Source: a virus. From it: DNA of 64,000 nucleotides. Both the position numbers and the translations under genes were made by a program. This document shows positions 30,606-39,545 of the stretch, piece after piece; position 1 is the stretch's first letter, and the number at the start of each line of letters is the position of its first letter. The notes beneath the pieces are model-generated. The model was not told the origin of the DNA and searched no databases. It saw only the letters and a list, made by a program, of their open reading frames with translations. The stretch is from IMG/VR virus record IMGVR_UViG_3300044846_005371, positions 32,001-96,000 of that record; one strand, given 5' to 3'.

Positions 30606-32765
30606 ATGGCAAGAGCAACAATCAAGCTAGTAATTGATCCTGACCGTAATAAATTAACTTTTAGTAAAAATTTTAGGATATTTTCAACGGATGAGCCGCT
30701 ATCTGGAATAGTTGCATTTTCTGAATATTTGGAAAGTATAGATGTAACTTCTCCAAATACACTAGATCTAAATAGTTACTTATTCAGATCATTTAGGTAT
30801 TCATCAAATAAGGAAGATTGGTCATTATGGTACTCAGTTTCTCCAACAAATACTTCTGAGATTTCATCAATTATATTGGATCCAGCTTCCAAGTTTTACT
30901 TTGAAATAAAATACGAATACGATAATGGTAATTTTGAGGAATTAGACAGTGCTATTCAAATCAATGAAATTAAGCTAAGATTTGAAAAAGCTGACGACTC
31001 TTTACCAGATTCCTATGCGCCTAGAGTAGTATGTTCAAATGAGCGTTGCACAAATTTCATAACCACTACTAATCCATCATTTAAACCATATCAAGTCGAC
31101 TCAGCTATAGATATGTACCGCGAGCTTTCGCTATATACTAATAAGATATTTGGACATGATGTCGTTTACTTTAAAACTGAACCTGATTCAGATAGTGGAG
31201 ACTATATCTTTAAGGAATGGACACTTTACAAAAACATAGATCGTAAATGTTTAAAGGTAGTTGTTCCAAAGAACTCCTTTCCTTCAAATGCTCCTAAATT
31301 TACTGAATTTGGAATGGATTTTCAATTACCATTTGAAGTCCATATCGATCATAGGTATTTTCAATCAATTTTTGGAGCAGGTACTGAACCTAGAGTTAGG
31401 GACTTTTTATATTTTCCTCTCTTAAATAGAATGTTTGAAATACAAGGAAGTTACATTCATAAAGGCTTTATGATGACTCCAACTTATTGGAAAGTATCGC
31501 TTAAGAAGTACAATCCAAATATCGACATGCTTCTTACTGATGATAGTCGACACTTCTTAGATAACGTTATTCAAAGTGCTGAACAATTATTCTCTGCTCA
31601 AGTCGAGCAGTCTACTTCAGATGCTAAAATGACAAAGCAGTACGAAAATATTACAACGACTTTTGATTCATCACGTAAAGCAATACACTTTGACCTCATG
31701 ACTAAGCAGCTAAAATACAATTTTAATCACGCTAGTCTAATTCAAAACTATTATGATTTAACAAAAATAGTTCCAGTTCAAAAGACATATCAACTAACAA
31801 ATGATGATCCAGTTGTCTCGATTAGCATGAATCATGTATCTCTTCAGGATTTGGATCAAAATTCTCCAAATTCTCATTACGTTATTCTTGCGTATCAGGA
31901 AAGTGAAATATTTAGCGCATGGCAAAATAATGCTCTATTTACATACGATAAAAATTTCTATGGAACTATCACTAGATATCTTAGAGTTAGGGGACCTTTT
32001 GATACTATTCCAAATCACATTGGCCAGTCCGAATCCGGTCGATATTTAAGACTTGAGGCGTATAAAGACCTTAGCTTAAAATCTCAAGTCAATGTTGCAG
32101 TAGATGCTATTCCAGGGACAGAGTTTAAAGTTTCTCTTAGGGATTCGGCAGTCGTTTATTCTTCTACTCCAAGATTCGATGAGTCGACTGTTAAAAACTT
32201 GACGTTTACTTGTCTATTTTGCGTGCCTACTCAAGTTGCAGAAACTTTACATTTTGTAAACGGATATGATTCAACTGAGCTTTCGGGTTTAAAAATATCA
32301 GCAAATTACGTTCCTACAACAACCGCAGCCGTTGATCAACCGCTTGGTGATATTACATTGAATGTAGATATTAATGAGATAACTAAAACCGTATCTGGTT
32401 CAAACATAAAGCTTGGAAAATGGTATGCATTAGTTGTTTCTTTATCTAATGAGTTTAAACAATGCGGAATTAACGTGTATGAGATACTTGAAGATCCATC
32501 TGACCTAACAAATCATAATGAATTATTACAAGTTATTAACTATACATCTAGCTTAGTTCCGCAAATATTTAATCTGACTACTCAGTATACTCTACCTAGC
32601 TCAAATATGTACATTGCAAATCTTAGATTGTTTAATACGATGATCAAACAAGAACAGCACAGTTTCATACTTAGCCAGCAATTCATCAAAGATGAGTCTA
32701 GTTTGATCTTAATCGACAACTGTCGTTCACAAACAAACTTACCATTTATCGCTAAAAATAGATAA
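30606..32765 (+). CDS. Neck / head-completion protein, gp14-like, with N- and C-terminal extensions
   Basis: IFGHDVVYF, FGMDFQ..FEVHI...YF and EPRVRDFLYFPLLNRMFEI match the gp14 pattern; LamG-like C-terminus (GKWYALVVS, IANLRLFN). Confidence 0.75.
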   Translation: MARATIKLVIDPDRNKLTFSKNFRIFSTDEPLSGIVAFSEYLESIDVTSPNTLDLNSYLFRSFRYSSNKEDWSLWYSVSPTNTSEISSIILDPASKFYFEIKYEYDNGNFEELDSAIQINEIKLRFEKADDSLPDSYAPRVVCSNERCTNFITTTNPSFKPYQVDSAIDMYRELSLYTNKIFGHDVVYFKTEPDSDSGDYIFKEWTLYKNIDRKCLKVVVPKNSFPSNAPKFTEFGMDFQLPFEVHIDHRYFQSIFGAGTEPRVRDFLYFPLLNRMFEIQGSYIHKGFMMTPTYWKVSLKKYNPNIDMLLTDDSRHFLDNVIQSAEQLFSAQVEQSTSDAKMTKQYENITTTFDSSRKAIHFDLMTKQLKYNFNHASLIQNYYDLTKIVPVQKTYQLTNDDPVVSISMNHVSLQDLDQNSPNSHYVILAYQESEIFSAWQNNALFTYDKNFYGTITRYLRVRGPFDTIPNHIGQSESGRYLRLEAYKDLSLKSQVNVAVDAIPGTEFKVSLRDSAVVYSSTPRFDESTVKNLTFTCLFCVPTQVAETLHFVNGYDSTELSGLKISANYVPTTTAAVDQPLGDITLNVDINEITKTVSGSNIKLGKWYALVVSLSNEFKQCGINVYEILEDPSDLTNHNELLQVINYTSSLVPQIFNLTTQYTLPSSNMYIANLRLFNTMIKQEQHSFILSQQFIKDESSLILIDNCRSQTNLPFIAKNR

Positions 32766-32771
32766 TATTAT

Positions 32772-33557
32772 ATGCAAACAGTAAACAGCGAAAACATAAC
32801 AAATTCTAACGTAAAGGACATCTTTCTTAGAAATGCAACAATTTCATTACTGGATCTTCTGAATAAACAAATAATAATCGATCTAGTTAGAAAGGATGTT
32901 GTTGAACGCCATCCGATTCCTTTCTTTTACAACTTTGCTGGAGATGAAGGTTTCATGAAAGATTTTTTCATCGATCTTCCAGATGATTGTACGTATCCTA
33001 AGTTTGCTGATGGAAACTATGACCAGGTTCCTAGAGGAATAGTAACATTAAGCTCTTTTCAAATAAGATCAGCTGATTTTACTAACAAATTCGTTAGAGG
33101 AAGTTTTAATCAGGAGACCCGTGATGTTAACGATCAAAAAGTTCTAAAAGCATATTCTTCAAGACTGATGACCATTCCAATGAGTTTGAAATTTGATATT
33201 AAGATCAATAGCGATAATATGAATAAAACTTTCAAAATAATTGAAAGAATTATCGATTTTTACTATAAGAATAATGTTACTTACTTTCAATTTAGAGGAA
33301 TTCGAATACCTGCACAAATAACTTTTCCTGAAGCTGAAAACTTTACTAAAAAATATGATTTTACTTACTCTGATGATAAGATGGTGATTACTAACTTTAC
33401 AATCGATATGGAAACGTATTATCCTAGCTTTAGCGATCACGGTGTGTTCTATAAGGGTAATAACATTCGTCAAGTAAACGTGCGATCGTCTATTCAAGAT
33501 TCTGGAGTAACTTTATCAGATTCTTGGGTCGATCCTGATTTTCCACCAGCTGAATAA
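32772..33557 (+). CDS. Tail sheath stabiliser / tail terminator, gp15-like
   Basis: PIPF.Y, PRGIV, IPMSLKFDIKI....KTFKIIERIIDFY pattern; follows gp14 as in T4. Confidence 0.75.
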   Translation: MQTVNSENITNSNVKDIFLRNATISLLDLLNKQIIIDLVRKDVVERHPIPFFYNFAGDEGFMKDFFIDLPDDCTYPKFADGNYDQVPRGIVTLSSFQIRSADFTNKFVRGSFNQETRDVNDQKVLKAYSSRLMTIPMSLKFDIKINSDNMNKTFKIIERIIDFYYKNNVTYFQFRGIRIPAQITFPEAENFTKKYDFTYSDDKMVITNFTIDMETYYPSFSDHGVFYKGNNIRQVNVRSSIQDSGVTLSDSWVDPDFPPAE

Positions 33558-33571
33558 AATAGATAATATCA

Positions 33572-34156
33572 ATGGCACTAACTAGACTAAAAAGTTTCAA
33601 TCAATTTGTAGGAAATTCAGTTCTTTCGGAAGGACTAGACTTTCACATCGCAAATCAACTATGTATATCTGAATCGATATTTAGACCTACTTCAAATTCT
33701 CACATATCTCTTCTAAACGAAGCCCGTCAACTATTTGAGTCTGGTGAGCTTATAGTTAGCGGAATGGATAAAATATTATTTGAAACAACAGATATCGGTC
33801 TATTTGGGACTTATCAGGGACGCGAGGTTCCACTCGATCTTCCAATAGATGTGGAACTAAATGAAGCAACTAAAGGTGGAAAGAAGGTGACTCTAAATAA
33901 ACCTATGCGAGGAGGTACTAAAAAGTATCACGTATATGTTAAGAATCCTAAGACCGGAAATATCACGAAAATAGCATTTGGAGACGTTCATGGAGGACTT
34001 ACTGCAAAAGTAAGTAATCCTAAAGCTAGAAAGAGTTTTGCAGCAAGACACAACTGTGCAGAAAAGAAAGATAAAACAAAAGCTGGTTATTGGGCCTGCA
34101 GAATAAACAGATATGCTCACCTTTGGGGAGGAAAAACTTATCCTGGATTTTGGTAA
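33572..34156 (+). CDS. Basic hypothetical protein, putative internal head protein
   Basis: N-terminus KSFNQF...VLSE; Lys/Arg-rich C-terminal module KKYHVYVKNPKTG...ARKSFAARHNC...AGYWAC. Confidence 0.7.
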   Translation: MALTRLKSFNQFVGNSVLSEGLDFHIANQLCISESIFRPTSNSHISLLNEARQLFESGELIVSGMDKILFETTDIGLFGTYQGREVPLDLPIDVELNEATKGGKKVTLNKPMRGGTKKYHVYVKNPKTGNITKIAFGDVHGGLTAKVSNPKARKSFAARHNCAEKKDKTKAGYWACRINRYAHLWGGKTYPGFW

Positions 34157-34157
34157 T

Positions 34158-34412
34158 ATGATATACGAAGATACAATAAAAGACAATCAATTAATCAGAA
34201 ACTTTCATGAGGAGATAGATGAAGTTGAATTGAAGTGGCATAGGGATGAAGAGACTAGAATCATAGTTTCTCTTAATGAGACCGACTGGCAGATACAGCT
34301 AGAGAATTCTTTACCTTGCTCATTAAATTCGATTACAGTTATTCCTGCAATGTACTGGCATCGTCTCATCAAAGGAACTGGCGATCTTTCTTTAAAAATA
34401 GTCAAGTTGTGA
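34158..34412 (+). CDS. Small cupin-like protein
   Basis: ELKWHRD...IPAMYWHRLIKG resembles a two-His cupin pattern. Start reassigned to ATG 34158, after the upstream stop. Confidence 0.5.
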   Translation: MIYEDTIKDNQLIRNFHEEIDEVELKWHRDEETRIIVSLNETDWQIQLENSLPCSLNSITVIPAMYWHRLIKGTGDLSLKIVKL

Positions 34413-34442: not shown

Positions 34443-35129
34443 ATGAGCATTTTAAAATTCAATCAGTATTTGATACTTGAGAAAGGAACAGACTCCTGTC
34501 CAATTGCAACTCAAAATTTGGAAGTAAATACCAAAAATAGAGATGCTTCAATCAAAGCCGACTATATTCAGTATGGTCCTTTGAATCTTTCTGATGAAAA
34601 GTATTGGGAAGATTTAGCAGAACATTGGAAGACTACTCCAGACGTTGCTAAAAATTCTAATTGCGGAAACTGCGTAGCTTTTGATATTTCTCCAAGGATG
34701 GAAGAATGTATGCCTGGCGAAGTTTCAGATCCTCAAGGAAGACTCGGTTACTGTTGGATGCATCACTTTAAATGTCATTCCGCTCGTACTTGTAGAACAT
34801 GGGCAGCTGGCGGACCTATTGTAAAAGATTCAGTTTCCGCAGATTGGCAATCAAAGAGTGGAGAAAAGATAGAAGAAAAGCGTAAAACTAAAAACTCTCC
34901 TGACTGGCATGATTCAGATGCTCCTGATGCAAATGGCAAGTTTAAAACGCTAGGCGTTAAAGCTCTTGCAAAGTGGTTAATTCGTACTAGAAATGGAGAC
35001 ATGCGAAAGATCACAGGAAGCTTGAACCAGCAAATAGTTTTTAATAGAAATGACAACCCAACATATGCTAAAAAAATGGAAAGCGTTAGAGAAGAAGTGA
35101 AGAGGCTATTGAAAAAAAATAAAAAGTAA
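34443..35129 (+). CDS. Cys-rich two-module protein, putative internal head protein
   Basis: MSILKFNQYLILE; CGNC...C...GYC...C...TC..W cluster; basic C-terminal module. Confidence 0.65.
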   Translation: MSILKFNQYLILEKGTDSCPIATQNLEVNTKNRDASIKADYIQYGPLNLSDEKYWEDLAEHWKTTPDVAKNSNCGNCVAFDISPRMEECMPGEVSDPQGRLGYCWMHHFKCHSARTCRTWAAGGPIVKDSVSADWQSKSGEKIEEKRKTKNSPDWHDSDAPDANGKFKTLGVKALAKWLIRTRNGDMRKITGSLNQQIVFNRNDNPTYAKKMESVREEVKRLLKKNKK

Positions 35130-35602
35130 TGATACTAAATTTTAAAGAGTTTTGTCTGCTTGAAGCTAAGTCTAAATCAAATAACCCAGCTCAATATAAA
35201 GCTCCGGAAGGAAGTGCTCGTGACAAGAAATTAGATAAAGCTAAGGAGCTTCTCAAGAGAGGAAATAAGGAAGAAGCTTACGCCCTTAGAGATGAAATGG
35301 AAGCAAGAGTTAGAAAGAATCCTAATTGGAAAAACACTCCTAGAAAAGATTCAAAGGTGAACGAGGCTTCTAAAAAAAGTGGCAGAAACTTAAGTAAGGA
35401 AACGTTAGCTAAGATCCGAGCAGTTGCTAAGAAGAAAGGATACTCCTTTGCTGATCTTAAACGTGAATATGTTAAAGGATTGGGAGCATACTACTCATCT
35501 GGTTCCAGACCAGGCATGACTGCACATCAGTGGGCAATGGCTAGAGTAAATGCAGCAAGTCCAAGTAAATCATGGGCAAACGTAAAAAAAGTAGGTAAAT
35601 GA
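35129..35602 (+). CDS. Lys-rich hypothetical protein, putative internal head protein
   Basis: MILNFKEFCLLE; second module after KVNE with KGLGAYYSSGSRPG..AHQWAMARVN. Confidence 0.7.
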   Translation: MILNFKEFCLLEAKSKSNNPAQYKAPEGSARDKKLDKAKELLKRGNKEEAYALRDEMEARVRKNPNWKNTPRKDSKVNEASKKSGRNLSKETLAKIRAVAKKKGYSFADLKREYVKGLGAYYSSGSRPGMTAHQWAMARVNAASPSKSWANVKKVGK

Positions 35603-35964
35603 GCGAAATTTACGCGTATTCAAATGGAAAAATAGTGATCAAGAAAAGTTCTATTCATGGAATAGGAGTGTTTGCAAAAGAAGACATTTCAAATGGAGAA
35701 TTAATAGAAGTATGCACTTCATTAGATTTAGATAGATGCAATAGAGCTACTCTAACTGAATATGCATTTGAAAGGCCATCAGATGGTCCAGTCAAAAGAT
35801 TAGTCATATTATTAGGATATGGAAGTTTGTATAATCATTCAGAAGATAACAATGTAGATTTTACAATAAATTCAGATTCCAAACGATTCACATTCTTTGC
35901 AACTAAAGACATATCTGCTGGTTCTGAATTAACGATAAATTACCAAAAAAATAAAAATACATGA
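35599..35964 (+). CDS. Minimal SET-domain protein-lysine methyltransferase
   Basis: KKSSIHGIGVFAKEDI..GELI, GYGSLYNHS and FATKDI.AG.ELTINY: all canonical SET motifs. Confidence 0.9.
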   Translation: MSEIYAYSNGKIVIKKSSIHGIGVFAKEDISNGELIEVCTSLDLDRCNRATLTEYAFERPSDGPVKRLVILLGYGSLYNHSEDNNVDFTINSDSKRFTFFATKDISAGSELTINYQKNKNT

Positions 35965-36512
35965 TATTAAACGCAAGGCAAAACGGTTTTGTATTTTTCT
36001 TTCCACCTGACTATTTTTCAGATGCAGTAAAGGAGAAATATAAAAAGTATTATCAAAGTTTAGTTCTTCCATATGACACAATAGAAGACTTTATGTCATC
36101 TACTATTCAGTCAATTGAATTTCCAGGCTGGGCAATTACACCAGTCGCTCAAACAAGAACTCTGGGAAAAAGACAAGAATATAAATCTTCAGTTCAAGTG
36201 GTAGATACTTTCACAAGAAAGTTTACTCTTACTTTTAAGATGACTGATTCATACTTGAATTACTTCATATTTTTAGATAATGCTTTAAATTTCTTAGACT
36301 TCTCAAATAAGAAACAAACGTTCTCACCAATGAGTCTTTCTATGTTGAATAATGAAGGATATTTGGTGTCGACTCTAGTATTTAAGGAGCCTTTGCTGAT
36401 CTCTCAAGATAGCGTAAAATTAAGCTATAGTGCAGCTGCTCCAGATTTCAAAACATTCACAGCAACTTATCAGTATTTCGATTTCAGCATCGATACTACC
36501 TTTAATGATTAA
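35961..36512 (+). CDS. Tail-tube-like / tail completion protein (gp3-like)
   Basis: IQSIEFPG and FTLTFKMTDSYLNY resemble gp3/gp19-fold proteins; located beside the sheath gene. Confidence 0.55.
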   Translation: MILNARQNGFVFFFPPDYFSDAVKEKYKKYYQSLVLPYDTIEDFMSSTIQSIEFPGWAITPVAQTRTLGKRQEYKSSVQVVDTFTRKFTLTFKMTDSYLNYFIFLDNALNFLDFSNKKQTFSPMSLSMLNNEGYLVSTLVFKEPLLISQDSVKLSYSAAAPDFKTFTATYQYFDFSIDTTFND

Positions 36513-36530: not shown

Positions 36531-36557
36531 AAAAAAGGGACCAAATGGTCCCTTTTT
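36531..36557. terminator. Bidirectional Rho-independent terminator
   Basis: AAAAAA-GGGACC-AAAT-GGTCCC-TTTTT between converging genes. Confidence 0.9.
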
Positions 36558-36575: not shown

Positions 36576-39545
36576 TTAGAAGCTTGGAATAAATCCAGTA
36601 GAATCTGAACTTAATTGTCCACCTACTTTAGTAATAGTAATTCTATTAATAAACTTATGAATACCTCTTGGGAAATCTACTCGGATATCCATAATTGCAG
36701 TATTTGCTGAGATAACTTCATTAGTGTTGTTTGACTTGTCAAATATTACTTTATATGAAGTTAAACCTTCTGCTCTAACTACTGCATCTAAGTAGTTTTC
36801 AACAATTGTCTTAACTCTCAATCTTGTGATTTCATCGTTGAAATCGAACAAGAAGTTAAACATGATTCTCTCAATGTCTCTTTCGATAGTTGATAAGTTA
36901 TCACGAACGTGAGCATTGTTCAACGCTGAATTGATTCTTTGATATGCAGTATTATTACTGAAGATCAATGTTCCAAATCCTCTACGACGAACCAATAAGT
37001 TGTAACCAACTGGCTCCAAGTAAGCGCGATCCTCGTCAGTTAAGTTATATTCTAAACCTACAATCTCTGGATCAGTTACATTTCCTCGTTTTGCTCCAGC
37101 AGTAATCAAGAATGGAGTACCATTTTTGAATTTTCTAACATATGTATTAGAAACATATGCTGCTGGTGGAACTGAAATCGTCTTATTTCCCTCAGTGATC
37201 AATAGGTTTGGGAAGAAATAAGTTGAGTATGAGCTTAGTGGAACTCCATTAACGTCTTCTTCAGCAAAAGCAAATGTGAAGCTTGGATTAAGATCTAAAT
37301 CTCCACCTTGTGCAATCAATCTAGTTGAAACCATCTTATTTGTTGAATCAATAAAGCTAGGATCAGTAGACTTCTCAAATTGCTCAATTGATGGAGCATT
37401 TAAGATTGCCATAGCTTGTCCATGAAGAGCAGCTATTTTTGCTAAGTAGTATTTAGAACTAGATGAAACGTCACCAGCGTAAGAGTCAACTACATATCTA
37501 AAGTCAACTGCTTCGCCTGAAGCAAGTGCTTGTGGAATTGAAGTATCGTCCCATAAGAATTGTAAAATAGTTTTTTGGCGTGAAGAACTTCCATTAGGCA
37601 AGTTAGCATCACGAATTACAAATCCTTTTAAGTATTGACCTTTGTATGTGTCTGCAAAGTTTTGGATTCCCTTTTGAACATATAATAAGTTCCCAGCAAC
37701 ATTCAATCCAACTACGTTCTCATTCATTGGAGTCATAGTAGTTATTACATACTTAACAAAACCAGTAGAAGGAGTTGAAGAAACAATTGAAATAATTTTT
37801 AAGAATCTAGTTCTTCCATCTAAAGTTTGAGCTTTAATGTAATGGTTTACTTTTATAAATTCATCAATTATCTCTTTTTGTGCAGCATTTGCAGTATCAA
37901 TAGTCAACTCTAATTTGTTTGGCTGAAGTACTACATATTCCTCAAAGAAATTAGTATCTGTCAAATCAAATTCATAAGCAAAAGTTTTACCAGATTGCAT
38001 TGCAATTTCAATAAACTTACCTACATCTGTTGTAAATGTAGGATCTACTTGTGTAGTTAAACCAATATTTGAGTATACTGTTATTTTAGCATAACTTAAT
38101 CCAGTATCTGTCAGGAAACCTCCTTGTGTTTTAATGTAATTGTCATCACCGTCACCTGAAATAATATCTCCTGTTTTTACAAATCCCTTTGTATACATTT
38201 CATATAGCTTACTTCCTTCAATCGCTATAATGTAATTAGTATTAGCAGTAAGGTTGTTTGTTATAAAAGTTTCTCCGCTTGCTCCTGATGCAAGTATATT
38301 TGCCAAAGTTTCTTCCTCTACTTTGAATACTAAATTAGTATCAGCAGGCTTAGTATAACTGATAACATCGATCAATGCAACAGGCGCTTTTTCAACAGGC
38401 GATCCGTCTGGTCCAGTAGATCCTCCGTCATCTGCAGAAAAAGTAGATGGAGAACCAGCAGTACCTAATTCCATTTCAGATACTCCATATCCAGCTAAGT
38501 CTATTCTGTGTGTTAAGATGTTGTCATCTGCAAAAGTATCTTCAGTTAAATCAACTTTTTCTAGTTTACTTGCGTCTAATGCACACATGATTCCAGTAGT
38601 TGGGAACAGTCTATTTACTACACGATCGATAGATACAGTGGAGCCACCCTGATCCTTAAATTCTGGGATCAAACATCCAATTGCTCTGCTAATTACTTTA
38701 ACTTCTCTTAATGAAAAGAAATCGTTCATCTTAGCTGCTTTTAAACCAGATGCATCAAAATAGTTAGCATAAATAGGATCAGTTGCTAATCTTAGATTAT
38801 TTGACCAATCTCCGCTTACTACTATAACTTCAACGAAATAATCAGAGATTAGATCATCTTCGTGAACAAAATTAGGAAAATCGATAGGATTTCCGCCGCC
38901 GATAGTATTATACCATTCTTTTGCAGTTACGTCATATCCTTTAATATCAGATCTCTTAACCCAAATAGTAACGTTATTCTTTCCAGTATTAACAAATGAA
39001 AGAATCTTATTAGATGGACCGTTAACCTCTCCTAACGATTCAGGAGCAGTTATAAAATCATCACCTAATGCTAAGTTCTTACTTCTATTTAGCTGATCCG
39101 CACTTGCTGCCCAAAAAGTTCTCTTATTGAAGAATTCAACAATTGGGAAAGTTTCAGTTGTGTCAGGATTGTTAGTAGCTGCTTCAGTATTAAATGTTGT
39201 GAAGTTCGCCTGATCTTCATTTGTAGTAGGATCAAGATAATCAACATCAGTGTCAAAAGGAAGCACATTAAGAGCAAATACCGGTCCCTCTCTCAGGGCA
39301 ACCTCGATTGTTCTATGGAAGTAACTTCCAGCTTTTTCTAATTTTGGATCATTATCTCCAAATACTGCTCTTAATGTTCTAACATCATTTATTAAAACAA
39401 CAGTATTAAAAGGTCCAACTTTGCTGGACCCAACCACCAATCTACCAGTAGCAAGCGGCAATGCAACGTTCTCGCTAGCATCTACCTCAACAGTATACAC
39501 GCCACTGGCCTTATAGTTGTTTAGATTAATGAGTCTATCGGCCAT
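36576..39545 (-). CDS. Tail sheath protein, gp18-like
   Basis: 989 aa; ASGVYTVEVD N-terminus; VPPAAYV, AGAKRG, SALNNAHVR, FDFND...R and DKSNNT.EVI sheath C-terminal motifs. Confidence 0.92.
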   Translation of the reverse strand: MADRLINLNNYKASGVYTVEVDASENVALPLATGRLVVGSSKVGPFNTVVLINDVRTLRAVFGDNDPKLEKAGSYFHRTIEVALREGPVFALNVLPFDTDVDYLDPTTNEDQANFTTFNTEAATNNPDTTETFPIVEFFNKRTFWAASADQLNRSKNLALGDDFITAPESLGEVNGPSNKILSFVNTGKNNVTIWVKRSDIKGYDVTAKEWYNTIGGGNPIDFPNFVHEDDLISDYFVEVIVVSGDWSNNLRLATDPIYANYFDASGLKAAKMNDFFSLREVKVISRAIGCLIPEFKDQGGSTVSIDRVVNRLFPTTGIMCALDASKLEKVDLTEDTFADDNILTHRIDLAGYGVSEMELGTAGSPSTFSADDGGSTGPDGSPVEKAPVALIDVISYTKPADTNLVFKVEEETLANILASGASGETFITNNLTANTNYIIAIEGSKLYEMYTKGFVKTGDIISGDGDDNYIKTQGGFLTDTGLSYAKITVYSNIGLTTQVDPTFTTDVGKFIEIAMQSGKTFAYEFDLTDTNFFEEYVVLQPNKLELTIDTANAAQKEIIDEFIKVNHYIKAQTLDGRTRFLKIISIVSSTPSTGFVKYVITTMTPMNENVVGLNVAGNLLYVQKGIQNFADTYKGQYLKGFVIRDANLPNGSSSRQKTILQFLWDDTSIPQALASGEAVDFRYVVDSYAGDVSSSSKYYLAKIAALHGQAMAILNAPSIEQFEKSTDPSFIDSTNKMVSTRLIAQGGDLDLNPSFTFAFAEEDVNGVPLSSYSTYFFPNLLITEGNKTISVPPAAYVSNTYVRKFKNGTPFLITAGAKRGNVTDPEIVGLEYNLTDEDRAYLEPVGYNLLVRRRGFGTLIFSNNTAYQRINSALNNAHVRDNLSTIERDIERIMFNFLFDFNDEITRLRVKTIVENYLDAVVRAEGLTSYKVIFDKSNNTNEVISANTAIMDIRVDFPRGIHKFINRITITKVGGQLSSDSTGFIPSF

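Follow-up and report, generated by a model that had tools for sequence, protein, structure and literature searches.

A putative short-tailed mini-SET methyltransferase gene, apparently inserted among late neck and tail genes of a jumbo-size phage

The window analysed here, a stretch of 64,000 nucleotides of viral DNA (positions 32,001 to 96,000 of the IMG/VR record IMGVR_UViG_3300044846_005371), carries at positions 35599..35964 of its + strand a 121-aa gene with an ATG start that belongs to a short-tailed subfamily of the mini-SET methyltransferases. The reading that we favour, with moderate confidence, is that this gene encodes an optional, stand-alone enzyme, which was inserted into a late operon and would find its substrate in trans. 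The source record spans 120 kb at a CheckV completeness of ~47%, which points to an uncultured phage with a genome of jumbo size.

The assignment to the family is firm. The product of the ORF matches the Pfam SET profile (PF00856) with an E value of 2.9e-15 and 57 bits, the curated cut-off being 22.4, and covers it in full (positions 1-105 of 105). Its top sequence match in the PDB is vSET of the chlorovirus PBCV-1 (1n3j, E 1.1e-15), residues 9-116 aligning with vSET 3-106 over nearly the full length, and the ranking continues with a Plasmodium mini-SET and then with NSD2 and MLL1. The motifs of the family are found as G21-I-G23 (GxG), Y74-G75, Y78-N79-H80-S81 (NHS) and E110-L-T-I-N-Y115, so that the ELxxxY motif with the catalytic tyrosine is present through E110 and Y115. 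An alignment of 47 sequences of the family shows that the window SET keeps the eight invariant columns (F25, E37, G73, Y78, N79, H80, E110 and Y115) and the 12 near-invariant ones, including G21, G23 and Y55, without exception. There are two cysteines in the whole protein and no pre- or post-SET clusters of this residue. Moreover, an AlphaFold2 model built on these 47 sequences reached a mean pLDDT of 83.5 and a pTM of 0.76, a confident prediction, and has the SET beta-fold, with vSET as the closest fold in the PDB (3kma_A, TM 0.79/0.91, rmsd 1.7 A); a fold search with this model returned 343 matches in the PDB at E<=0.001, and the 44 listed were SET enzymes without exception. The original prediction of a minimal, vSET-like SET domain of 121 aa with all its motifs is therefore borne out by the full match to PF00856, by the invariant columns and by the first place of vSET in both sequence and predicted fold. 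The ORF is thus confirmed, far beyond chance, as a real SET-family gene with an intact core, and its product is probably a SAM-dependent protein-lysine methyltransferase, putatively active.

The nearest enzyme of known structure is also a viral one. With ~33% identity to the window SET, vSET (A612L of Paramecium bursaria chlorella virus 1; 1n3j, 2g46, 3kma) has a similar size of ~120 aa and consists of a bare SET core devoid of pre- and post-SET zinc clusters, with the GxG, NHS and E..Y elements in common. It carries, however, a C-terminal segment of the YGDDYW type that is lacking in the window SET, and its H3K27 substrate cannot apply here, since the host of a bacteriophage has no histone H3. 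PBCV-1 both encodes and packages vSET, which acts on host chromatin (PMC7019647), whereas in archaea Go1-SET methylates MC1-alpha, a DNA-associated nucleoid protein, according to the work as cited in PMC10117894. Cellular mini-SETs, from Bacteroidota and from other bacteria and archaea such as the Methanosarcina Go1-SET, have ~128 aa and the core motifs in common with the window enzyme, to which they are 35-44% identical, but they occupy stable housekeeping neighbourhoods and end in a different tail (NYNG..VWFE). Among phages, the SETs of Menderavirus (Moby CPT_Moby_259, Mendera, Marzo, Yut2, Ps15 ORF62) and of the 735-kb megaphage LR756501 are 30-36% identical and are likewise stand-alone mini-SET genes of large myoviruses, although they form a separate lineage in the tree and the Moby SET lies outside any tail operon. 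Phage mini-SETs are thus already present in GenBank annotations, and the window SET adds another member. In the literature, we found no characterised phage SET enzyme and none with a known substrate, as had been anticipated in the original prediction; SET genes have nonetheless been annotated in cultured Stenotrophomonas phages, where a SET-domain protein is listed among the proteins of unknown function (PMC9025141).

The most singular feature of the window SET is its C-terminus. As noted from the outset, the tyrosine of ELTINY (Y115) is followed by only six residues, QKNKNT, and the YGxxYW-type segment past the catalytic tyrosine is missing, whereas vSET and most of its viral relatives have at this point a G-x-x-Y-W motif plus ~10 more residues. 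The window SET is accompanied in this regard by three metagenomic homologues (P0001, P0002 and P0003), which also stop 6-8 residues after the catalytic tyrosine and which share with it 89% (P0001) or 50-55% (P0002 and P0003) identity. In a FastTree phylogeny these four sequences are monophyletic (support 0.98) and belong neither to group B (0.999) nor to the large phage clade (0.92), the deep placement of the short-tailed group having a support of 0.68. Tail-less natural SET variants are also seen in L079 and in group B.

A missing tail could mean that the gene is a decaying or inactive passenger, a recent insertion that lost its C-terminal lid on arrival and is now drifting. Besides the absent YGxxYW segment, the last codons (CAA AAA AAT AAA AAT ACA) resemble the A-rich sequence found ahead of other genes of the block, which speaks for such a history. 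We regard this as very unlikely. The invariant residues of the catalytic and SAM sites are all intact, not only in the window but across the whole short-tailed subfamily; the short tail has been retained in homologues with 50-55% identity, implying long-term selection; the variants of L079 and group B show that natural SETs without this tail exist elsewhere; and the AlphaFold2 model, with its pLDDT of 83.5, is a confident one. A short tail kept over ~50% divergence together with intact catalytic residues is better read as a functional variant than as a decaying one. In other SET enzymes, a post-SET aromatic residue closes the lysine channel. The YGxxYW segment may do the same, and the short-tailed enzyme could for this reason be weak or require a partner, or a dimer mate, for its completion.

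The gene is embedded in a block of late genes that run on the + strand in the order neck, gp15-like, 194-aa basic, 99-aa acidic, 228-aa basic, DUF5824, SET and tube. The block opens with a neck or head-closure (Hc2-like) protein of 719 aa (30606..32765; phrog_679, E 2.9e-8) and a gp15-like tail sheath stabiliser or tail terminator (32772..33557; PF16724, E 5e-7; phrog_227). These are followed by the 194-aa basic protein (33572..34156; phrog_7595, pI 9.6), the small acidic ORF of 99 aa (34113..34412), with tblastn matches in 23 of the relatives defined below by their tube, and the 228-aa basic protein (34443..35129; pI 9.1), with homologues in 14 relatives. Immediately upstream of SET lies a Lys-rich DUF5824 protein of 157 aa (35129..35602; PF19141, E 1.6e-9; 17.2% K, pI 10.2), the stop of which shares four nucleotides (ATGA) with the SET start, and immediately downstream lies the 183-aa tail tube protein (35961..36512), the start of which shares another ATGA with the SET stop. 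The tube assignment comes from an Atlas structure search, where the protein matched tail-tube clusters with a TM of 0.88 and PF23849/PF06841 appeared in related clusters; it has 254 homologues, with identities of 62-100% among the 120 listed and of 84-85% for P0022 and P0023. In GC content, the SET gene (0.30) falls below all the other genes of the block (0.32 to 0.39).

A bidirectional terminator hairpin detected by a terminator scan at 36532..36557, with an 11-bp stem flanked by A and T runs, separates the tube gene from the convergent tail sheath gene on the − strand (36576..39545; 989 aa; phrog_34521, E 3e-84), which is therefore convergent with the whole SET-tube unit. Further downstream of the sheath come a dUTPase and then replication genes. 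The sheath has its closest counterparts in Flavobacterium, Tenacibaculum and Lak phages (~27-32% identity), which suggests a Bacteroidota host for the window phage. From the common strand, the overlaps and the terminator past the tube, we infer that SET is co-transcribed with the late neck and tail genes. The initial description of a SET gene overlapping both of its neighbours inside a phage morphogenesis operon agrees with the two 4-nt joins, the gp15-like gene upstream, the tube downstream and the terminator, and the labels given to these neighbours, a Lys-rich putative internal protein and a tail-tube-like gene, were reasonable in view of the composition and conserved leader of the former and the structural match of the latter.

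With respect to the signals that might drive this block, the T4 late-promoter octamer TATAAATA has one match in the whole window against 9.2 expected from shuffles. The octamer appears to be avoided, and the canonical T4 late promoter is not the one used by this T4-like phage. An exact 12-nt repeat, AATAGATAATAT, occurs at 32757-32768 and 33558-33569, each copy just 5′ of a gene, the gp15-like one and the next one, respectively; across the whole window it shows no enrichment.

A common N-terminal leader, F-N-Q-[FY]...L-x-E, is found in the three basic proteins that precede SET (starts at 33572, 34443 and 35129); it takes the form LKSFNQF..LSE in the 194-aa protein, ILKFNQYLILE in the 228-aa protein and MILNFKEFCLLE in the DUF5824 protein. 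This leader resembles the capsid-targeting sequence of T4, and the three proteins are predicted to be putative capsid-targeted cargo. The DUF5824 family is found in phages only, and in relatives without SET its leader is kept as M.L.FNQYCLLE, then SKK; the window protein has no homology to the internal proteins (IP) of T4, and its likeness to them lies in the resemblance of MILNFKEFCLLE to the T4-type (L/I)-x-E leader, which in that type of protein the prohead protease removes. The SET protein itself begins with MSEIYAYSNGK and has no leader of this kind.

A position right after the predicted capsid-targeted cargo genes in a late unit speaks for SET being itself a packaged effector, which would be produced late, travel inside the particle and enter the cell with the DNA to methylate nucleoid-associated or other host proteins at the very start of infection, a scenario with a precedent in the packaging of vSET by PBCV-1 (PMC7019647). 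It is, however, improbable for the window phage: SET is devoid of the leader common to its three upstream neighbours, no packaging signal was identified in it, and the SETs of Menderavirus and of the phage clade A described below lie among early-like or replication genes.

How the gene reached its position is best seen in the relatives of the window phage. For this comparison, 80 related viral loci were anchored on the tube protein, with tube identities of 46-71%, and in none of the 80 does a SET homologue lie at <=6 kb from the tube. The surrounding genes are kept to a variable extent: a DUF5824 homologue is found in 22 of the 80, in most cases just ahead of the tube, and about 25 (~25/80) have their neck and gp15 genes in the window order. 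In the ~20 closest relatives with DUF5824, this gene is followed by the tube gene without any SET between them. The records of five relatives are long enough (62-138 kb) for a wider search, which found no SET domain anywhere in any of the five; the sheaths of these long-record relatives are 60-65% identical to that of the window. At the nucleotide level, DUF5824 ends in L094 and L096 with WANVKKVGK and the stop codon, and the tube ATG begins two nucleotides later; in the window the same DUF5824 C-terminus is followed by ATGA, the 363-nt SET ORF and a second ATGA leading into the tube. By this alignment of junctions, SET reads as a seamless single-ORF insertion between the DUF5824 stop and the tube start. 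A separate observation concerns the sheath, which abuts the tube in the window and lies ~50 kb from it in L095, L100, L102 and L111 (records G001-G004); this difference points to a large rearrangement in the window lineage, with a breakpoint just past the tube, near the SET insertion.

The SET family as a whole is large. At E<=0.001 it has matches in 2,793 representative clusters, 362 of which reach E<=1e-10, and its members are mostly stand-alone proteins of 110-170 aa. In the representative library, P0141-P0147 (260-310 aa) carry two tandem SET domains, recalling the side-by-side homodimer of vSET in one chain. Relatives were found on at least 456 metagenome contigs and at least 103 IMG/VR contigs, and in at least 593 prokaryotic species representatives, with Saprospiraceae, Lewinellaceae and Chitinophagales prevailing among the nearest of the latter. 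Near the Saprospiraceae SETs, the search for hints of a substrate returned only housekeeping genes (LemA, TPM, XseB, AccA, DapA, PaaA and an amylase). Among deposited phages, SET is restricted to the Menderavirus phages of Stenotrophomonas and to the one 735-kb megaphage. A further SET in a 5.3-kb contig from a Woesearchaeota bin (L255, CAYGYN010000024.1) nests in phage group D, and the contig is probably a piece of phage DNA that was binned with an archaeal MAG by mistake.

The neighbours of SET were compared by clustering the ORFs of 80 SET-bearing viral loci, namely the window and 79 others, and the contexts proved to be diverse. Clade A comprises 47 loci, in which a + strand unit opens with SET and continues with an SNF2-family helicase (PF00176 + PF00271); the two genes overlap by 4 nt in 38 of the 47, and the unit and the sheath module are transcribed away from each other. 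These SNF2-linked jumbo-phage SETs (e.g., L032) resemble that of the window in their 38-48% identity, their size of ~130 aa, the nearby sheath and their optional presence, but they keep the YGxxYW tail and belong to a separate clade (support 0.92). At L032:5986-9954 and 46 similar loci, from jumbo phages of up to 321 kb, SET and the SNF2 helicase are followed by a 512-aa protein with Fe/Mn superoxide dismutase domains. As the clade A loci had been sampled for having SET, its presence was retested from the SNF2 side: SET lies upstream in 51 of the 80 closest SNF2 loci and is absent in the other 29, so that it is optional in clade A too. In the window phage's own record (~47% complete), no SNF2 or HU-like genes were found. 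Elsewhere, in group B (e.g., L024:5986-11061), the genes after SET are, in this order, those of a class-I methyltransferase, a patatin-like phospholipase and the tail sheath; in group D, SET stands among LRR proteins; in the Stenotrophomonas phage Moby, it is one of a long series of very small hypothetical ORFs; and in L047 an Hc2-like neck homologue comes directly after it. The distribution of SET is thus sporadic, and no neighbour is conserved across these contexts. The 171-aa gene adjacent to SET in clade A and the other flanking clusters were also considered as tube-like candidates and rejected, with hhalign probabilities of <=1.2% in a comparison without secondary structure and thus of limited sensitivity.

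This survey bears directly on the proposal, made in the original prediction, that SET and its basic neighbour form a chromatin-like modification system for virion proteins. None of the 79 other SET-bearing viral loci has a DUF5824 homologue, be it beside SET or elsewhere in the locus, and none of the 152 ORFs adjacent to SET outside the window is Lys-rich and basic; counting the window's own, the figure is 1 of 153, against a background of 11 of 612. Synteny between SET and basic proteins thus failed to appear, and the absence of SET from all 80 tube-defined relatives and all five long records further contradicts such a system. A gene that is sporadic and unlinked to basic proteins in relatives had been named at the start as the outcome that would count against the proposal, and this is what was found. 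What stands is a vSET-like enzyme in a late neck and tail unit; what is not supported is a system made with the adjacent basic protein.

The same idea can be put as a rival reading in which the targets of SET are late proteins of the phage itself, be it the DUF5824 protein, the 194-aa ARKS protein or the sheath and tube subunits, and some observations speak for it. SET overlaps and is co-oriented with late genes, right behind three basic proteins with the leader. One of them contains a histone-H3-like site: ARKS occurs once in the ~21,000 aa of the window ORFs, as PKARKSFAARH at residue 152 of the 194-aa protein (33572-34156), three genes upstream of SET, and the sole match to the looser [AS][RK]KS pattern is in the DUF5824 protein, so that the window's only matches to both patterns fall in two leader-bearing proteins. 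A tail sheath gene is found at <=6 kb from SET in 62 of the 80 viral loci, and this recurs in three SET lineages that are separate in the phylogeny. We nevertheless consider a virion-directed enzyme unlikely. Relatives without SET keep all of these candidates, from the DUF5824 and ARKS proteins to the tube and sheath, which means that none of them needs methylation; no DUF5824 homologue or Lys-rich basic ORF adjoins SET elsewhere; and in clade A the SET gene is divergent from the tail genes and paired with a helicase. The ARKS site is invariant in 11 SET-less relatives, which argues against any co-evolution with SET, and its proximity, observed post hoc, is to be taken as a post-hoc lead only. 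The narrower claim that SET acts on its own leader-bearing, Lys-rich cargo (the PKARKSFAARH site, DUF5824) or on tail proteins, the repeated placement of independent mini-SET lineages by sheath and virion genes reflecting the methylation of particle or injected proteins, seems to us decidedly less likely still. As for the proximity to the sheath, its cause may only be that the borders of structural blocks are hot spots for insertions, and other accessory enzymes are found at the matching pre-sheath place in group B. It also hints at a tail or virion link that the reading of SET as an accessory gene leaves unexplained, and it keeps a virion-related role alive.

We return thus to an optional mini-SET with its substrate in trans. 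According to this reading, SET would have entered the window phage lineage as one ORF between the stop codon of DUF5824 and the start codon of the tube gene, an exact placement that would entail co-transcription and, probably, translational coupling with the late neck and tail genes. SET would behave as an accessory gene, which the nearest relatives lack and which other clades of phages carry in settings that bear no relation to this one. As no dedicated partner is encoded next door, the substrate is most likely supplied in trans, and the enzyme, putatively active and expressed late, would catalyse the SAM-dependent lysine methylation of a protein encoded elsewhere. A host protein as the target has, in our judgement, close to an even chance and is rated somewhat above a virion or internal protein of the phage, which we hold possible but rather doubtful. 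The former is favoured because SET is dispensable for the virions of close relatives and travels alone between contexts, as would an accessory enzyme directed to the host.

To our knowledge, protein-lysine methylation by phages is essentially unstudied, even though the SET family includes hundreds of viral contigs among its matching clusters. The window offers a clean case of mini-SET mobility, as an apparently seamless one-ORF insertion into a late operon, and indicates that adjacency to basic virion proteins is an unreliable guide to the substrate of a SET enzyme. If virion or cargo proteins were methylated after all, lysine methylation would have a part in phage particles or injected proteins that is still to be described. 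In either case, the window SET is a defined candidate for a substrate search and, among the smallest SET enzymes, a natural variant without the lid.
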